Origin: a phage
DNA length: 64,000 nucleotides
Assembly: GCA_020773975.1 (NCBI GenBank)
Contig: GCA_020773975.1_3638.1
Strand: one strand, 5' to 3'
The position numbers were made by a program, and so were the translations under genes. Within the stretch, counting starts at the first letter, position 1. Every line of letters begins with the position of its first letter. Shown piece after piece: positions 33,443 to 48,336 of this stretch. The notes beneath the pieces are model-generated. The model ran no database searches and was not told where the DNA came from. It worked only from the letters and a program-made list of their open reading frames with translations.

Positions 33443-33479
33443 AATTTAACCACACAGGGAGGCTAACGCACGTAGTCTC

Positions 33480-33535
33480 CCATATGTCCCCATTTCAGGG
33501 ACATGGGTATGTCCCTGTTTTGGGGACACAATACT
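33480..33535. promoter_or_regulatory. cluster of GTCCC/GGGAC palindromes
   Basis: ATGTCCCCATTTCAGGGACATGGGTATGTCCCTGTTTTGGGGACAC: four half-sites forming two palindromes. Confidence 0.45.
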
Positions 33536-33539
33536 AACT

Positions 33540-33740
33540 GATCAAATTAAACTAACTTATAAGATCTATTAAATATAATACTACGTATTATAATACTATG
33601 ATCTATTTAATATAATATATTATACTACGTATAATATAATTTAATATGATCTAATATAATATAATATAAATTATATAATATAATTTAATATAATACTACG
33701 TATTATATATTATAATATATATATTATATAAAATTTATTT
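33540..33740. repeat. AT-rich iteron region (candidate origin of replication)
   Basis: About 200 bp of roughly 90 percent A+T with three copies of GATCTA(T)TTAATATAATA and three copies of ACTACGTAT. Confidence 0.6.
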
Positions 33741-33750
33741 AAAATACACT

Positions 33751-33895
33751 AAGTCTTGAAGAATGTCAAGACTTGATTTTAAATATTTTTGTTGATATGA
33801 TTCGATTGAGTCGAATCGTATGGTTCGATGATTTCGAATCATAGAGTTCATAGTGTTTTGCCTGAAAGTGTGAGTCGATGAGACTCTTCAGGCAA
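33751..33895. promoter_or_regulatory. series of perfect palindromes/hairpins
   Basis: AAGTCTTGA-AGAATG-TCAAGACTT (33751-33774), GATTCGA-TTGAG-TCGAATC, TTCGAATC repeats, GCCTGAA...GAGTC-GATGA-GACTC...TTCAGGC. Confidence 0.5.
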
Positions 33896-34183
33896 TACGT
33901 GAGTGTGTAAGATGCTCACTGCGCTGATAGCTTGTGACCATCTAACCCTCATGAGCCATTCTGAGATAAACCCACATCAACAAACCCTACAGGTTTGTCT
34001 CTGTGTGTTGATCTCAATCATGGATTCGGGTTGTCACAGGTCACTATGTGACTCTGTGTGTGGGGGATTTTGAATGTGTACCGGAGCATGGCGCACAGGA
34101 CTGGTTCATCTGTCTGTCTCAACTGGGGCGCGGCGGGTGTCAAGGTTTAGTTTTACGTTTGTTTGGGTGTGGAGGAGAGTTTT

Positions 34184-37087: not shown

Positions 37088-37114
37088 TATGATATTTTAT
37101 CGCTGATATTTGTT

Positions 37115-37142
37115 TTCCCTGTGATATTTTTGTCACAGGGAA
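37115..37142 (+). other. perfect 10-bp hairpin
   Basis: TTCCCTGTGA-TATTTTTG-TCACAGGGAA directly after the preceding stop; no U-tract. Confidence 0.4.
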
Positions 37143-37359
37143 AGTTTCAACAACAGATATTTTCTTGATACTTTAAAACTCTACCAGAATTTAAAATTCT
37201 GTAAATTTAGAAAACTATTACTTATAAGCGTTTCGACACAATTTTGTTATGAAAGCCTTGTTTTTATATAAAAACCTGTTTTAGCATGAGTGGTAGGATC
37301 ACACTCCATACTACCTTTATTCCTACAGATGAGCACCTCCATGTCCGAAAACTCGGTTC

Positions 37360-37560
37360 TCGATCGAAAATTCATTTTCCAGATCGTATTTGCTCCTTAC
37401 GGAGAAAATTTTTTAGGGCTACAAATTTCAGTTCTCGATCAGTTTTTCGATTTCAAAATCGTATTTGTTTTTTCTTGCGAAAAATTTCGCACGCTCAGTT
37501 CTCGATCGAGTTTTCAAAATCGAAATCGTATTTGCTCTATAGCGCGAAAAAATTTTTATG
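37360..37560. repeat. three imperfect direct repeats of about 65 bp (GTTCTCGATC ... ATCGTATTTG ... GMGAAAAATTTTT)
   Basis: GTTCTCGATC begins at 37366, 37431 and 37498; each unit also contains ATCGTATTTG and an A-run/T-run; a fourth diverged copy is at 45983. Confidence 0.6.
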
Positions 37561-37909
37561 GGTATCATAATTCTATCACACACTTAAACGCAAAGCAACA
37601 TAAAAATTTTTGTTGAATGATAATCATTCTTATTTGCATAATGACAGGCAGGAGCGGTGTCTTATCCTCCCCCGTTGACCATCGTCGCCGTAGTTTGAAG
37701 TTTATAGCCGTTCTCGGCTTATATCTTTGTTAGATATAGATTAGCATAATTGATAAAGAAAGCAAGTTTTAGGCATAATCTTTACGTTTCTTTACAAATT
37801 TATTTTTGACGAGTTACCGGCGATCGACCTTCCAACCAGCGCCCTGATATGTTAGCCCCGCCTTTACGCCGTGGGGATGGCGTTTCCTCTTCTGTATGTG
37901 AAACATTAT

Positions 37910-39516: not shown

Positions 39517-39888
39517 ATGAAACAGTTAACCGCTTCCCAAAAAGCAATGATCCGTGAGTATGTTTTAAACTCTCTTTCTTTCGATATTGAATCGGGTAGC
39601 GAGCAAGAGCAGATCAAAGAATTAAAAAACCGATTTGAATCTGAATACTGGTACGATAGCAACAAGAAACGCTATCAAAATGATAAAGTACAAGGCCTCA
39701 AAAATTGGTTGCAAGGCTTGCCGAGTGGTGTTAATATCGATTTCACTTATTACGATATTGAGCAACGCCTTAAAGATCTTGGAATCATTACCGAGACGAC
39801 CAGAGAAAGCACTATTGAAAAATATATATCTGAGTGGTGGGATCTGGTAGCGCCGTTTTATGCTGGGCTAATCGTCAACTTAAAATAA
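39517..39888 (+). CDS. hypothetical protein
   Basis: GAGG SD; 123 aa. Confidence 0.55.
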   Translation: MKQLTASQKAMIREYVLNSLSFDIESGSEQEQIKELKNRFESEYWYDSNKKRYQNDKVQGLKNWLQGLPSGVNIDFTYYDIEQRLKDLGIITETTRESTIEKYISEWWDLVAPFYAGLIVNLK

Positions 39889-39923
39889 TTATTGCAAACT
39901 ATCTAAAACTGGTTTAAATTAAA

Positions 39924-39945
39924 GGGAGTGAGTTTAATCACTCCC
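39924..39945 (+). other. perfect 8-bp hairpin upstream of the next start codon
   Basis: GGGAGTGA-GTTTAA-TCACTCCC; the ORF-track GTG start at 39928 lies inside it. Confidence 0.45.
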
Positions 39946-43465: not shown

Positions 43466-43867
43466 ATGAATACTTACAAAACTGTTTTTAATTTCGACAA
43501 CTTCAAAGCTATCTGTGACGATCAGATCGGTAAGTGCCGTAAAGAAAAAGGATTCTATAAATCTTATAAATTGATTGCGGTTGTTGATGAAGAGATCACC
43601 GAAGTGGCAACGCTCAACCTGTACCACACCAACGCTACTAATTACGCTTGCCTGTGGATGCACTGGACCAATATTAAAGGTTGGGATCATGGCTATGTTG
43701 GCGGGAAAGCAAGCGGATACGGTTACGACAGGGAGGAGGCCGCGATCCATGTCGTAGCTAATAAGCTCGGTATTACTGGCAACTGGTTTAAAGGTGAGCA
43801 ATTGCTAGATGCGATGGCACGCCATTTTGATATGAAAGGCGCAAAGGTTATAACTTGCAACGCGTGA
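43466..43867 (+). CDS. hypothetical protein
   Basis: AAGAGG SD; 133 aa. Confidence 0.55.
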   Translation: MNTYKTVFNFDNFKAICDDQIGKCRKEKGFYKSYKLIAVVDEEITEVATLNLYHTNATNYACLWMHWTNIKGWDHGYVGGKASGYGYDREEAAIHVVANKLGITGNWFKGEQLLDAMARHFDMKGAKVITCNA

Positions 43868-43914
43868 TCATTCAATAGCGGGGAATATTCCCCGCTTATA
43901 GATAGGGCATAATC

Positions 43915-44166
43915 ATGATTTACGATCTTAAATATTACGACGAATTGAGCATTACAGCACAATTAACCGCCCGTGTCAATATTATAGCAGACCTTGAGAA
44001 TCACCACAGAAAGCGCATAGTCCAGACTATCGCAAGTTTTAAAAATAATCCTCATAAAGTGATTAATGACACGAAGCACATTCAACGCCTCAGAAACGGC
44101 GCAAAGGCGCTTTATAGTGTACAAGTTTTAACGAGATCGCCCCGCGTTTTGACTGGTCGAGCTTAA
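43915..44166 (+). CDS. hypothetical protein
   Basis: 83-aa ORF. Confidence 0.45.
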   Translation: MIYDLKYYDELSITAQLTARVNIIADLENHHRKRIVQTIASFKNNPHKVINDTKHIQRLRNGAKALYSVQVLTRSPRVLTGRA

Positions 44167-44241
44167 AAACAATAGTTTAAAATTAATTTAGTTATTGATA
44201 AAATCTTATATAAAACTTTAATCTAAAAGGGGTGAATTAAT

Positions 44242-44442
44242 ATGAAACGTTTTACCTATGGTGTTGTTGGTGGTTATGTTTCAAACCGGTTTTACAATAC
44301 CGAGCGTGGTGCTAAAAATGCGGCTACCCGTGGATATGGCAATAGTGCAAATTTACAAGTTGGCTACATTAGCAAAATTAGCGGTATGTTTATTCCGGTT
44401 GCTCAACGCGGCATGTATTGCATAAACTGGATGCCAATGTAA
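44242..44442 (+). CDS. hypothetical protein
   Basis: AAGGGGTGA SD. Confidence 0.45.
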   Translation: MKRFTYGVVGGYVSNRFYNTERGAKNAATRGYGNSANLQVGYISKISGMFIPVAQRGMYCINWMPM

Positions 44443-44457
44443 AAAGGAGTAATAAAA

Positions 44458-44649
44458 ATGGATGTATCACAAGTTAGAAAGGTATTAGCAGCGTTACGCT
44501 ATCACAATTATAGCAAGGTGAAGAATGATCCTGATTATGTTGATTCCAGCTTGGAGGAAGACACCTTGCAAGCTATAAGCCATATGCAGGAATTGCTTAA
44601 GCGTATGACAGAGAAGAACAGATCTGATTATATAGGTGAAGAGATTTAA
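44458..44649 (+). CDS. hypothetical protein
   Basis: AAGGAG SD; last ORF of the cassette. Confidence 0.45.
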   Translation: MDVSQVRKVLAALRYHNYSKVKNDPDYVDSSLEEDTLQAISHMQELLKRMTEKNRSDYIGEEI

Positions 44650-44682
44650 TCTCTTACAACCGCACAAAGTAAAATTGTACAA

Positions 44683-44709
44683 GGGGCGCATTAAGCGCCC
44701 TTTATTTTT
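44683..44709 (+). terminator. rho-independent terminator closing the small-ORF cassette
   Basis: GGGCGC-ATTAA-GCGCCC followed by TTTATTTTT. Confidence 0.7.
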
Positions 44710-44911
44710 GCCCTAACAAGCATGATAAGTTTTATCTATCAAAACACCACACAGAAAAAAGTGAATAAAACGCGGTATCGAGCTAAACGAGGGTAGGCAG
44801 TACAACGGCAAGGGTAAACAATTAAGGCCGTTATAACGCGATTTAGGCCGCTTAAAATCGATCCCCATCACGAACAACCCCCATAATCTGACCAAAACGA
44901 CACAACATGAC

Positions 44912-45000
44912 TTAAATGATAACCATTCTCAACAACATAAGAATTTTTATGCAATTTTAGTGAATATCTATTTAAATGATAATGACTCTCAACAACAAAA
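44912..45000. repeat. two direct repeats of about 29 bp
   Basis: TTAAATGATAACCATTCTCAACAACATAA (44912-44940) and TTTAAATGATAATGACTCTCAACAACAAAA (44971-45000). Confidence 0.55.
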
Positions 45001-45092
45001 TAACACGACCGAAGCGATTTAATCGCCTATCACAAAACAAATCAATTGTAAAGAACAATTTAAAAGCTGCGTAAGTGGCGCGACCGTAGGGA

Positions 45093-45320
45093 GCGACACA
45101 ATAACGCAGTAGTAACCCCTCCCCCTCACTCCTTACAGTCGCCCGGTATCGGGATAGCGTTATTATGTCGCTACGCGCCAACGCGTTAACAATTTTGCAA
45201 AGAAGCCTGCTTTGCAGGTTAAGCGCATTGCGCTTAATCGCGTAGCGACTATGTGAAATTATAACAGTTAAATTATTAATAAAATCTTGCAAAATTGTTA
45301 ACCTACTGCGTTATTGTGTC
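45093..45320. repeat. nested inverted-repeat element (18-bp perfect terminal inverted repeats around about 190 bp)
   Basis: GACACAATAACGCAGTAG (45095-45112) is the exact reverse complement of CTACTGCGTTATTGTGTC (45303-45320); inside, GTCGCTACGCG / CGCGTAGCGAC plus the palindromes ACGCGT, GTTAAC, CCTGC...GCAGG, AAGCGCATTGCGCTT. Confidence 0.6.
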
Positions 45321-45433
45321 CTGTATATAATTCGTTAAATTAACCAAATTAATCCCCGATTATTACGCAGTAAATCACCTGCTTTTAACCCTGTTAATGT
45401 GCCACGTAGTGATCTGCTATCTTGCCCAGGGAT

Positions 45434-45452
45434 AACCGCATGGCATGCGGTT
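45434..45452. repeat. perfect 9-bp-arm palindrome
   Basis: AACCGCATG-G-CATGCGGTT. Confidence 0.55.
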
Positions 45453-45530
45453 AAATGCTGTTAAGTGCTTGAAATGCCAGATCAATTTGGTCACTGCGTG
45501 ATTATGATTGCGACAATAATTTGCTATTTA

Positions 45531-45560
45531 TTTGTTATAATTTGTTATAATTTGTTAAAC
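45531..45560. repeat. tandem 10-mer repeat (3 copies)
   Basis: TTTGTTATAA TTTGTTATAA TTTGTTAAAC. Confidence 0.6.
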
Positions 45561-45659
45561 ACTCTTTTATCTTTTCTCTTACATTTTCGTTATATTTGAT
45601 TTGTTATCGTTTTCCCTCATTTCGCTTCGTTATTGAAAACAAGAATTATTATCATTGAT

Positions 45660-45960
45660 ACGCCTTAACAGGCTGGCGGGTCTGTTAGTGGTCTGGCTCT
45701 CTGTGTGGTCATGTTGTTATTGGTTGTGATAGCTTGGTTTTATTGTCTGGCCTGTTATTGTTAGCTTGCTTATTGTTGTGTGGTGTATGTATTAGTTAGC
45801 TAGTACATTAGCTGGTGCGCATAACGTGTATTATGTTAAATCAGGTGGCCCACAAGTAAGGTGGCTTGTCAATAACAATAAGTGCTATGTGCGGTAGTCT
45901 GGCCCATCAGTGTGCCCCTTTGTTGTGTGGTGCTCTCAGTGTGTGACCTGTCTGCTGTGT
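45660..45960 (+). other. strand-biased G+T-rich non-coding tract
   Basis: Top strand almost devoid of A and C runs; recurring TGTGTGG/CTCTGTGTGG; ends with a diverged fourth copy of the GTTCTCGATC repeat at 45983. Confidence 0.5.
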
Positions 45961-46190
45961 GCGCTGCGCCAAATCTCGAGCGGTTCTCGATCACAATAGC
46001 TGTAGGATATTTTCAAAACATCCGAATTTCCATCGACACCCCCAGCTCATCTGCCTGTCACCTCTGAGATAAAGCTGTAGATATTTTCACTCCTCACATC
46101 ATGCACAAGTTAATACATGCAAGTCTTTACAGACAGGGGTGGGTGGTGTAAAATACCTGTGCCAACAGTACAAAACACAGAGGAGGTTTA

Positions 46191-47651
46191 GTGGCAAAAC
46201 AGTTCTTTGACAAACATTACATGGAAACGCATTTTGTAGAGAAACCTCTGCATCGCCTGAACTTTACAGATTTAGAAGGAATGAGGTTTGGCAAGATAAC
46301 GGTGCACAAACTTAACAGAAGAGAGGATAAGTCTTTTGTGTGGTGGTGTACGTGTGATTGTAACCCATCCAGATATTTTATGGTTGTGCCTTACTCACTT
46401 AAAACAGGGGTGACAACATCTTGTGGTTGCAATTATAAAACTAATGGAGGGAATATACATGAAACACTCCAAGAGTTTCAAAAGAAAGTTGGTGGTGATT
46501 GGGAGATTATCTCATACCAAGGTAGAAAGCACGATTGTGTTGCCAAATGTACTATGTGTGGGAGTATTGTCACCAAACAAGGTGGCTCATTTATCTGCGG
46601 TGTGACGTGCCATTGCACTGATAAAAGAATAAAGAGGCGTGATGATATTTTGCATCTTGCGGGGTACAGTCTGATCAAAGAAGAGAAAGTTCAACAGCAG
46701 AATGGTGAATATATAATGCACTTGCGCTGTAAATCTTGTGGTGTTAAGAAACTGACGCGAAACACGGAGTTAAGGGATTTAAAGCCATGCCTGTGTAGAG
46801 GCGACCACACCAACAATGGGAAACCTTGCGCCATTTACCTGCTTTCACATAAAGATGGTAAGTATTGTAAGATTGGTAGGTCTTATAGCCCCTCCTCAAG
46901 ATTACGTATGATTAATGGTTCTGGTGGCGACTTTATATTGGAGCATGTTTGGTGGACACCTAACTATCACTACGCATCTGTGCTGGAGACAACACTCCAC
47001 AGGGAATTTTCTGAGCATCGCTTTGACGCTGGTGGTTTCGATGGGAGCACAGAGTGTTTCTACATAAAGCCTGACAAATTGGCAAAAGGAATATCTGAGA
47101 TAGTCGCCAAGTTGGTTGGGGATTACAAACCTGAAGATGGGGTGTTGACAAAAGATGTGAAGATAAGGAATAACTACAAGAACAGCGGTATGATTGTGAA
47201 GTCTAGGAGTTATCACTTCAAAGAGTCAGATGTGTGTTTGTGGATACCTTATAAAGGGTATCTCAGAAAGAAGAGATCCCCATTCTCCTCTTGGGAGATG
47301 GCAGAAGAGTGTCACTATTTAGCTGCAAATGTGCAGCCTTCCAAAAACTTAGATAGGTTTAAAATTTATGATGTGGATGGGGTTACTGACTCCATAGCAG
47401 GTTGGTCAAGGAGAACTGGAATCCCTGCTCAGACACTTACGTGGAGAATGCAACGCACAGGCATGACAATGAAAGAGGCGATTAATTATTGCAGACCAGA
47501 CACTGTTATTTGGTGTGGCGGGAAAATGGTTAAGAAGAGAGATCTTAAAAGCATTATCGGTGTTTCTTGGGAGTCGGTTTATACAGCATCCAGAAAAAGC
47601 AAGAAGTCCCCAGAACATATTATAGAAGAAATACTGAAAAGGGCCACTTAA
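46191..47651 (+). CDS. T5orf172 (GIY-YIG superfamily)-like protein with N-terminal Cys-rich Zn-finger repeats and C-terminal HTH-like module
   Basis: GTG start 4 nt after AGGAGG; core AIYLLSHKDGKYCKIGRSYSPSSRLRMING ... EHVWW ... ETTLHREF ... GSTECFYI; several CxxC/CxC clusters upstream; C-terminal GVTDSIAGWSRRTGIPAQTLTWRMQRTGMTMKEAI. Confidence 0.55.
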   Translation: MAKQFFDKHYMETHFVEKPLHRLNFTDLEGMRFGKITVHKLNRREDKSFVWWCTCDCNPSRYFMVVPYSLKTGVTTSCGCNYKTNGGNIHETLQEFQKKVGGDWEIISYQGRKHDCVAKCTMCGSIVTKQGGSFICGVTCHCTDKRIKRRDDILHLAGYSLIKEEKVQQQNGEYIMHLRCKSCGVKKLTRNTELRDLKPCLCRGDHTNNGKPCAIYLLSHKDGKYCKIGRSYSPSSRLRMINGSGGDFILEHVWWTPNYHYASVLETTLHREFSEHRFDAGGFDGSTECFYIKPDKLAKGISEIVAKLVGDYKPEDGVLTKDVKIRNNYKNSGMIVKSRSYHFKESDVCLWIPYKGYLRKKRSPFSSWEMAEECHYLAANVQPSKNLDRFKIYDVDGVTDSIAGWSRRTGIPAQTLTWRMQRTGMTMKEAINYCRPDTVIWCGGKMVKKRDLKSIIGVSWESVYTASRKSKKSPEHIIEEILKRAT

Positions 47652-48336
47652 GGCCCGTTGTGTTGTTGGTATGGGACACCCGACTTACCATTGACCAGGT
47701 AAACCAATATCAAGGCCAAATTCGTGACACTCATCCCAGTCAAGACTTTGATTCCAGTTTGTAACTGTCCTCTCTGTGTGGTGGGTGTATGATGCTCTCC
47801 GTGACTGCTTTGGCATCTTTTTTGTCTGAGATTTCCCGAAAAGAGGTGTGTTGTCATTGAGTCTTCCGGCAGCCTTTTCACCCTTTTTGACTTGTCTCCC
47901 ACGGGCATTCCACTGCTCCAGTGTCCTGTAACACATAAAATCATTCTCCTGTAATATCTGGTGTGGGGATAATGACAGATTGTACCAGAGGTGTCAAGTC
48001 TGTTGACCAGAGTGTGTGGGAGGGGTGTCGCTATAAAAAATTTTTGGAGAGCTTTCTATGGTTTATTCTGTAGCTTCAGACAGGCCATAAACCCAGATGT
48101 GACGGGGCTTTCAGCTATGTTGTGTGTTGATCGCAAATAAGGATAAAATAATCAATATAAATGCAGATAAATGTTGTTTTATTGTGTTTGTGTAACTGGG
48201 GTGTCATGTCTTGATAGGTTATGACCTGTACATATTTTGTACAGAAGTGTGGTGTGCAGAGTGGAGGTGGCAATTCCCCAGACGGGGGTGGGGGTAGGTC
48301 ATGGTGGAGAGCAGGGGCATGGTTAGCCCCATATGA

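Follow-up and report, generated by a model that had tools for sequence, protein, structure and literature searches.

A probable genome-terminus region with a branched inverted repeat in a Vequintavirinae-like coliphage

The window analysed here is the whole of a 64,000-nt stretch of phage DNA (contig GCA_020773975.1_3638.1 of GenBank assembly GCA_020773975.1), and it contains a gene-free region of about 1.5 kb (44,704-46,190). Comparison with related sequences suggests that this region is probably the genome terminus, or concatemer junction, of a phage whose packaged DNA is non-permuted and ends in short, exact direct terminal repeats (DTRs). Packaging and terminus regions of this kind are known from short-DTR myophages, namely LL12, phi92 and KPP-1, and the one in the window is unannotated. 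What has not been described so far is the conserved architecture around the DTR, that is, a branched hairpin, its inversion and a layout similar to that of phage T7. A preliminary description of the same DNA had named a packaging site or genome-end proximal sequence among several possible functions of the region, and this suggestion is supported, since the region agrees in gene order and in blocks of homologous sequence with relatives in which terminal repeats have been mapped. The repeat would appear only once in the window because the deposited, assembled sequence is in circularised or concatemer form.

The gene-free region extends from an intrinsic terminator on the plus strand (44,681-44,703, a 9-pair stem followed by a T-run), which forms its left edge, to a GTG-start gene at 46,191. 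The terminator closes an upstream plus-strand cassette of small genes and is kept in phages Av-05, TH18 and phi92. The window belongs to a Vequintavirinae-like coliphage; in this region it is 85-91% identical to its closest relatives, Escherichia phage Av-05 (Avunavirus, Vequintavirinae) and vB_EcoM_TH18 (TH18), and a Logan contig from SRR16760863 matches positions 44,400-47,999 with 100% identity. Both Av-05 and TH18 possess a homologous unannotated gap of ~1.9 kb, flanked by a plus-strand cassette on one side and minus-strand genes on the other. The G+C content of the region (~0.37-0.41) equals that of the remainder of the window, which encodes a family A DNA polymerase, a DnaB-like helicase and a PIF1 helicase as judged by Pfam. 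The window thus holds replication genes, and no terminase was found among its ten large open reading frames (ORFs) scanned against Pfam. The region had been said to lack any credible ORF. ORFs of 106 aa (44,972-45,292, minus strand, TTG start) and ~60 aa do exist, but neither is conserved, and the longer one crosses a segment that close relatives carry in inverted form or lack.

Noncoding blocks common to phi92-like phages occupy positions 44,684-44,860, with their spacing kept to the base. Identity to phi92 amounts to 78% in the 109 nt of 44,684-44,792 (E 8e-21) and to 81% in 44,823-44,854. The first 93 nt of the region match ~120 phage records, including phi92, and the part shared with phi92 stays in ungapped register over 331 nt. 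A conserved small ORF in this part was considered and rejected, given stops in every frame and the lack of a 3-periodic substitution pattern.

The same gap contains genome ends in relatives. The phi92 record annotates DTRs of 343 bp, and their left boundary lies ~1.1 kb downstream of the matching first ~100 nt, within the same gap. The DTR of LL12 (459 bp) is likewise located in a noncoding gap, that of the Klebsiella phage KPP-1 (Mydovirus) measures 514 bp as determined from coverage and with PhageTerm (PMC9862379), and that of BME3 measures 342 bp. The rV5 paper draws a 'non-coding' box at the homologous place. GenBank records that start or end exactly at the LL12 boundaries include bov11CS3, HdK5, ECP2309, CM1, Pr121LW and ECP2303, and those that do so at the phi92 boundaries include UAB_1, BME3, VEcB, PHB05, PD06, PD114 and W22. 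The flanking genes agree with this placement. The last gene before the gap (44,458-44,649, 63 aa) is 81% identical to LL12 gp164, which adjoins the LL12 noncoding gap, and the genes flanking the gap of the window match phi92 gp242, gp006 and gp010, which flank the phi92 termini. Since the LL12 record has gp164 on the opposite strand, LL12 and KPP-1 are read in reverse relative to the window. Viewed in the orientation of the window, four genera agree in their arrangement, with the terminator followed by a spacer, the branched inverted repeat, a further 205-309 bp, short tandem repeats and the DTR.

Each of the three reference groups resembles the window in its own way. In the vequintaviruses LL12 and rV5 (459-bp DTR, 'non-coding' box, genes 163-164), the same syntenic gap lies between convergent units and contains, as in the window, an inverted-repeat element, ~200 bp, ~10-bp tandem repeats, the DTR and a G-rich repeat zone. 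The motif TTGTTGTGTGG and a core block of the DTR are also shared (93% over 29 nt in LL12, E 3e-7). By contrast, nucleotide similarity to LL12 is restricted to short blocks, its record has the opposite orientation, four extra genes stand between the common gene and the gap, and a strong G+T skew is present only in the clade of the window. KPP-1 shares the first 14 nt of the arm of the inverted repeat, five blocks of the DTR, the left-boundary context and the GATATTTT pair at the right boundary, whereas its host belongs to another genus, the interior of its inverted repeat is unrelated in sequence and its DTR has no G+T skew. Justusliebigvirus phi92 has the terminator, the conserved blocks and a two-box module at equal offsets, within a base over 290 bp; its element precedes the DTR by 249 bp, and TATTTGTT repeats stand right before the DTR start. 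Unlike the window, phi92 belongs to the subfamily Stephanstirmvirinae, its genes to the right of the terminus have the opposite orientation, its DTR is shorter and its matches to the Fur box are much stronger, at 16-17 of 19 positions. Many records of the MG0656xx series labelled 'Campylobacter phage' (C9, A150 and others) are ~93% identical to rV5-like or phi92-like coliphages across the region, which points to wrong host labels or contamination in this series.

Because collinear blocks, boundary motifs, tandem repeats and flanking indel hot spots agree, we predict the DTR at 45,558-46,055 (plus strand, ~498 bp), the boundaries being accurate to within a few bp. Five collinear blocks are common to the window and the KPP-1 DTR, and the last of them lies 31 nt from the right boundary in both. 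The part most conserved across genera, GGTGCGCATAACGTGTATTATGTTAAAT (45,808-45,841, plus strand), is 91% identical to the KPP-1 DTR over 34 nt (E 3.6e-9). Global identity of the predicted DTR to the DTRs of KPP-1 and LL12 is low (0.50-0.53). At the left boundary, marked here by a slash and given, like all boundary contexts, in the orientation of the window, the sequence reads ...TTTGTTA/AACACTC in the window, ...TTGCTA/AACACAA in KPP-1 and ...GTGTCA/GACAAG in LL12, so that the context TA/AACAC is identical in the window and KPP-1. At the right boundary, the window has ...CATCTGC/CTGTCACC, KPP-1 ...GTCCGTC/TAGCACC, LL12 ...GTCCGCC/TGGCAGC and phi92 ...CGTTA/AGCACC. The motif just outside this boundary is thus TGTCACC, TAGCACC, TGGCAGC and AGCACC, respectively. 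Two copies of GATATTTTCA (46,006-46,015 and 46,080-46,089, plus strand) bracket the predicted right boundary. KPP-1 has a matching inside/outside pair, AAAATATCATGG, around its mapped boundary, and LL12 has GATATTT on either side. The GATATTTT motif is found once inside and once outside the right boundary in all three phages.

The predicted left boundary is adjoined by tandem ATAATTTGTT 10-mers (45,516-45,557, plus strand). The array had been noticed before as three copies and in fact comprises 4.1; its copy number differs among relatives. Tandem repeats also directly precede the DTR start in phi92 (TATTTGTT) and, with a unit of ~10 bp, in FV3 and LL12. Close relatives conserve the block 45,550-46,050 and show indel hot spots on either side of it. 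A further conserved block of ~70 bp (45,455-45,525) is near-identical in close relatives, with an identity of 0.95 for the block starting near 45,450, and lies between indel-rich stretches. The variable spacer also contains the palindrome TAACCGCATG-G-CATGCGGTTA, which is perfect, as described before, and 21 bp (45,433-45,453) rather than 19 bp long; TH18 keeps its stem with a different loop.

Wholly within the predicted DTR lies the G+T-skewed tract (45,660-45,960, plus strand) with its GTCTGG...TTGTTGTGTGG modules, and a T-rich stretch is found within the DTR as well. The top strand of the tract was thought to consist almost only of G and T. Its actual G+T content is 67% (A 16%, C 17%), yet it is indeed the most skewed 300 nt of the window, ~4 standard deviations from the mean of 300-nt segments (0.495, standard deviation 0.04). 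The skew was also considered as a general property of DTRs and rejected as such, the values for the other three genera being 0.49-0.54; it is specific to the clade of the window. On a larger scale, the composition of the top strand flips across the inverted-repeat element, from 62% A+C (44,710-45,090) to 61% G+T (45,558-46,055). The ACCACACA-type motifs left of the element and the TGTGTGGT-type motifs right of it are inverted copies of each other, the inverted-repeat pairs that link the two sides being I5, I10, I15 and I17-I19.

The most elaborate feature of the region is the nested inverted-repeat element (45,092-45,320, minus strand), which may form a hairpin or cruciform. As already noted in the preliminary description, perfect 18-nt outer arms (45,095-45,112 and 45,303-45,320) enclose a second inverted repeat. 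The latter has perfect 16-nt arms (45,185-45,200 and 45,287-45,302), and several small hairpins are found inside. The 18-nt outer arm has these two copies only in 64 kb, against 0.01 expected from shuffles. The left arm has an alternative pairing partner at 45,157-45,172 and is followed by a C-rich loop; in phi92 and LL12, TAAC or TAC comes after the left arm and then a C-rich loop. Folded as single-stranded DNA, the element reaches -53.3 kcal/mol (z = -7.4 versus shuffles), and the equivalent elements of phi92 and LL12 have z values of -10.3 and -12.1, respectively. These equivalents lie at a similar place in four genera, 205-309 bp upstream of the DTR (205 bp in LL12, 249 bp in phi92 and 309 bp in KPP-1), and the element of the window is ~240 bp upstream of the predicted DTR.

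The pairing of the arms appears to be maintained. The first 14 nt of the arm (AGCGACACAATAAC) are identical in the window, KPP-1 and five IMG/VR relatives. The latter were retrieved with a gapped two-arm pattern, a 14-mer scan having yielded mostly chance matches; an exact 20-mer of the arm was found in IMG/VR only in Av-05. Positions of the inner stem read GGGAG/CTCCC, TAGGG/CCCTA, GAGGG/CCCTC or GAGAG/CTCTC among the window, KPP-1 and the IMG/VR relatives, and since both sides change together, these positions co-vary. Sub-hairpins are altered on both sides too, and nine pairs show double changes, none of which disrupts the outer stem. In 17 of 17 elements, the minus strand (in the orientation of the window) is the more stable one under both RNA and DNA energy parameters. 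The element is present in seven of the seven genomes examined from the clade of the window, which answers a question of presence or absence raised earlier, and it has no flanking duplication in the window. Among rV5-like records, 118 of 120 retain it. In LL12, rV5, RudolfGeigy and naswa, it is held by a 293-bp unit bounded by the 20-bp direct repeat ATGCAAACGAATGGCATGGC; FV3 is without this unit and keeps a single copy of the repeat, with one mismatch (1,248-1,285). Compensatory changes, strong fold z-scores and the inverted core described below make the earlier proposal of a cruciform-forming site plausible.

Between the inner arms lies an 86-bp core (45,201-45,286), which is reverse-complemented in Av-05: 84 of its 86 positions match Av-05 as the reverse complement and 45 when read directly. 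In the close relative L011, the core has the same orientation as in the window. In TH18 and two metagenome relatives, L138 and L140, it is cut to 33-34 nt and has the orientation of Av-05. No inversions were seen in the elements of phi92-like and rV5-like phages, where the differences are loop deletions only. Inversion of the whole element in KPP-1-type phages was considered and rejected, L136 being merely a reversed locus. A promoter-like sequence, TTAACA-18-AATAAT (45,272-45,301, minus strand), takes its -35 box from the inner arm and its -10 box from the end of the core. Because the -10 box sits in the core, the site points leftward in the window and L011, and rightward, to the DTR, in Av-05, TH18, L138 and L140.

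If the region is the genome terminus, virion DNA would carry 45,558-46,055 at both ends, with the left end starting at ~45,558. The right end would consist, in order, of the terminator, the A/C-rich spacer with its AATGATAA boxes, the nested inverted repeat, a spacer, the tandem 10-mers and the DTR. The 10-mer array and the GATATTT pairs at the boundaries probably serve the terminase as sites of recognition and positioning. In the mechanism that we consider most likely, modelled on the concatemer junction of T7, the minus strand would be nicked left of the element and fold back on the inverted repeat. The folded-back strand could then prime synthesis that copies the spacer and the DTR, and the single DTR copy of the junction would thereby be duplicated before or during cutting. 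A role equal to that of the T7 hairpin is proposed for the element because the geometry of nick, fold-back and extension over the DTR fits. As a general mechanism for myophages of Vequintavirinae and Stephanstirmvirinae, with a branched inverted repeat as the fold-back primer that duplicates the DTR and core flipping as a by-product, this is a speculative proposal of our analysis that we would rate as rather unlikely.

The comparison with T7 (160-bp terminal repeat) is instructive in both its likenesses and its differences. For T7 concatemers, a hairpin end is reported as a possible intermediate that would prime terminal-repeat duplication (Chung, Nardone & Hinkle 1990, cited in PMC11482910 and described in PMC4281155). 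T7 has an imperfect 19-nt inverted repeat at 39,568-39,608, whose centre lies 190 bp to the left of the right terminal repeat (39,778-39,937), and ACCTAAAG short repeats in between, so that the inverted repeat, the short repeats and the terminal repeat follow each other in the order of the window. The same strand also folds better (-11.1 versus -7.2 kcal/mol with DNA parameters). On the other hand, T7 belongs to an unrelated family and has no sequence similarity to the window, its hairpin is simple where that of the window is branched and ~230 nt long, and for the element of the window the role is one that we infer. A second parallel is offered by the flip/flop of parvovirus inverted terminal repeats (ITRs) and the small hairpin inversions of chloroplasts. 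There, as here, an outer palindrome encloses smaller palindromes, and near-identical genomes carry the core in one orientation or the other. The parvovirus ITR is terminal, whereas the element of the window is internal, ~240 bp from the predicted end; and, unlike in flip/flop, the two core orientations are known from separate genomes and not from one population.

Several observations weigh against the terminus reading or its mechanistic extension. The DTR boundaries in the window are predicted from short motif and block homology, and over its full length the predicted DTR has an identity of only 0.53 to that of KPP-1, compared with 0.47 for shuffled controls. Among the public records of the closest clade (Av-05, TH18), none starts at this site. 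When contig ends of close relatives were used as a proxy for termini, none fell within the region, and the contigs run through it. Phage FV3 is without the inverted-repeat element, so the element is either dispensable or was lost in cloning; the loss, which may be a natural deletion by repeat slippage or a cloning artefact, counts against strict essentiality. A single ancestral inversion could explain the distribution of core orientations, with the window and L011 on one side and Av-05, TH18, L138 and L140 on the other. The strand asymmetry of folding comes from just four independent clades plus T7, and the T7 comparison presupposes that its hairpin forms at the inverted repeat 39,568-39,608, which we take to be the case.

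Other explanations of the region have to be weighed against these data. A replication origin, instead of or besides a packaging site, would be in keeping with the tandem 10-mers and the many inverted repeats, as well as with a top strand that is A/C-rich left of the element and G/T-rich right of it; a change of skew at the homologous place is also noted in the rV5 paper. However, the rV5 authors ascribe this change to the switch in transcription direction, no DnaA boxes (TTWTNCACA) are present in 44.7-46.2 kb, the region is not unusually AT-rich, a low-complexity gap at 33,540-33,740 is far more AT-rich and a much better candidate, and all conserved features follow the mapped DTRs of relatives. 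We regard an origin here as improbable, and the idea of a second origin put forward in the preliminary description found no positive evidence. The element could also act as a structured noncoding RNA of the minus strand, or as a transcription insulator or terminator, that protects or regulates the genome end. Its stems show compensatory changes, its minus strand folds better and with more G-U pairs, and it lies between convergent transcription units, with the Murica record annotating a 'terminator' over the homologous element. Yet no Rfam covariance model matched at E <= 1 over 43,500-47,500, no U-run follows either arm, no convincing promoter leads into the element, the T7 counterpart works at the DNA level, and inversion or deletion of the core in close relatives would alter an RNA. 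A search of the region for transfer RNAs and transfer-messenger RNAs found none. A structured RNA locus, which had been suggested before, thus gained no positive evidence in a region that lies downstream of a strong terminator, and we give an RNA or insulator function a similarly small chance as an origin.

The remaining two possibilities concern the mobility of the element or its core. Perfect 18-nt terminal inverted repeats had invited comparison with a miniature inverted-repeat transposable element (MITE), and the 20-bp direct repeat that bounds the rV5-like 293-bp unit, together with its single copy in FV3, could be read as the trace of such an insertion. Nevertheless, the 64-kb window contains the element only once, with no direct repeat (target-site duplication) flanking its arms. 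In the rV5-like phages the 20-bp repeats do not adjoin the arms, and since they stand apart from them, a deletion by repeat slippage is indicated. The position relative to the DTR is constant across the four genera, the two arms change together rather than remaining identical, and none of the genomes examined from the clade of the window is without the element. A MITE-like insertion is thus scarcely credible. An invertible promoter switch, in which flipping of the core redirects transcription from the DTR (window) or to the DTR (Av-05 type), would make use of the promoter-like site, which matches the consensus at 10 of 12 positions (45,301-45,272, minus strand; TTAACA as the -35 box in the inner arm and AATAAT as the -10 box at the core end). 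Both core orientations do exist, and the part of the core that bears the -10 box is retained in every short variant. However, the site is a consensus match only, the orientations are distributed as after a single ancestral inversion, and no recombinase gene was noticed near the element, though the window was not searched for one. We consider such a switch very unlikely. A genome-terminus region remains the reading that we prefer.

Left of the element, two direct repeats (44,912-44,943 and 44,972-45,003, plus strand) lie 60 nt apart. They had been reported with a length of 29 bp and prove to be 32 nt long and 84% identical. Each bears a AATGATAA-NN-A-N-TCT box, and the resulting two-box module is found at an equal offset in phi92. 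Exact copies of the AATGATAA box lie in the window at 44,915 and 44,975, with a third at 45,642 (45,642-45,656, minus strand), inside the predicted DTR, and another at 37,616, at a promoter-like site. Five matches of the core motif with at most one mismatch (four exact) compare with 0.87 expected, and comparable boxes are present inside the DTRs of phi92, LL12 and KPP-1. The box overlaps the centre of the Escherichia coli Fur box, whose 19-bp consensus is GATAATGATAATCATTATC; the boxes of the window match it at 13-14 of 19 positions and those of phi92 at 14-17. Over the whole window, 24 Fur-box-like sites were counted, a number that shuffles also reach (mean 16.7, maximum 28) and that is not significant; five of the 24 fall between 44,718 and 45,635. 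Either Fur or the terminase is a candidate binder of the AATGATAA boxes. In relatives of KPP-1, one Fur-box-like palindrome of KPP-1 is swapped for other palindromes, so this palindrome behaves as a hairpin. Outside the region, the gap 37,090-37,900 contains a ~57-bp direct repeat (near 37,430 and 37,487) and the promoter-like TTGAAT-N18-CATAAT at ~37,613-37,642, which is overlapped by the Fur-box-like AATGATAATCATTCT.

Two other loci of the window deserve mention. The gene that closes the region on the right (46,191-47,651, plus strand) codes for 486 aa; its product carries a T5orf172/MUG113 (GIY-YIG-like) domain and weakly matches PHROG families whose annotations are HNH endonuclease and homing endonuclease. 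Av-05, TH18 and L011 lack the gene, and it was undetected in L138 and L140; L011 aligns to its first ~160 nt. The gene looks like a homing-endonuclease insertion just right of the predicted DTR. A second ORF-free gap is located at 33,443-34,073. Its part from 33,540 to 33,740 is an extreme AT low-complexity stretch with TATAAT-type repeats; hairpins and repeats of the TTCGAAT type come next. Phages 18-1-2, 19-1-2 and 24-2-1 have two-contig assemblies that break at this AT stretch, and the length of the TH18 record is the sum of 79,447 and 54,435, with its junction at the same position as those breaks. A terminus at ~33.6 kb, corresponding to the TH18-type assembly break, was considered and rejected in view of the extreme AT low-complexity stretch there. 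It is plausible that the 33,443-34,073 gap is a DNA-unwinding element or an origin.

The architecture is fixed across four genera: a branched hairpin 205-309 bp from the DTR, tandem repeats at the left cut and paired motifs at the right cut, which together mirror the T7 junction. Even for T7 it is unresolved in what way packaging duplicates short terminal repeats, and this architecture gives a handle on the question that can be tested by deletion. If both core orientations coexist in one lysate, the maturation of large tailed phages would include a step resembling a rolling hairpin. The position of the true ends matters for the orientation and annotation of Av-05-like phages, since their public records are opened arbitrarily, and also for the engineering, the packaging mode and the transduction risk of therapeutic coliphages.

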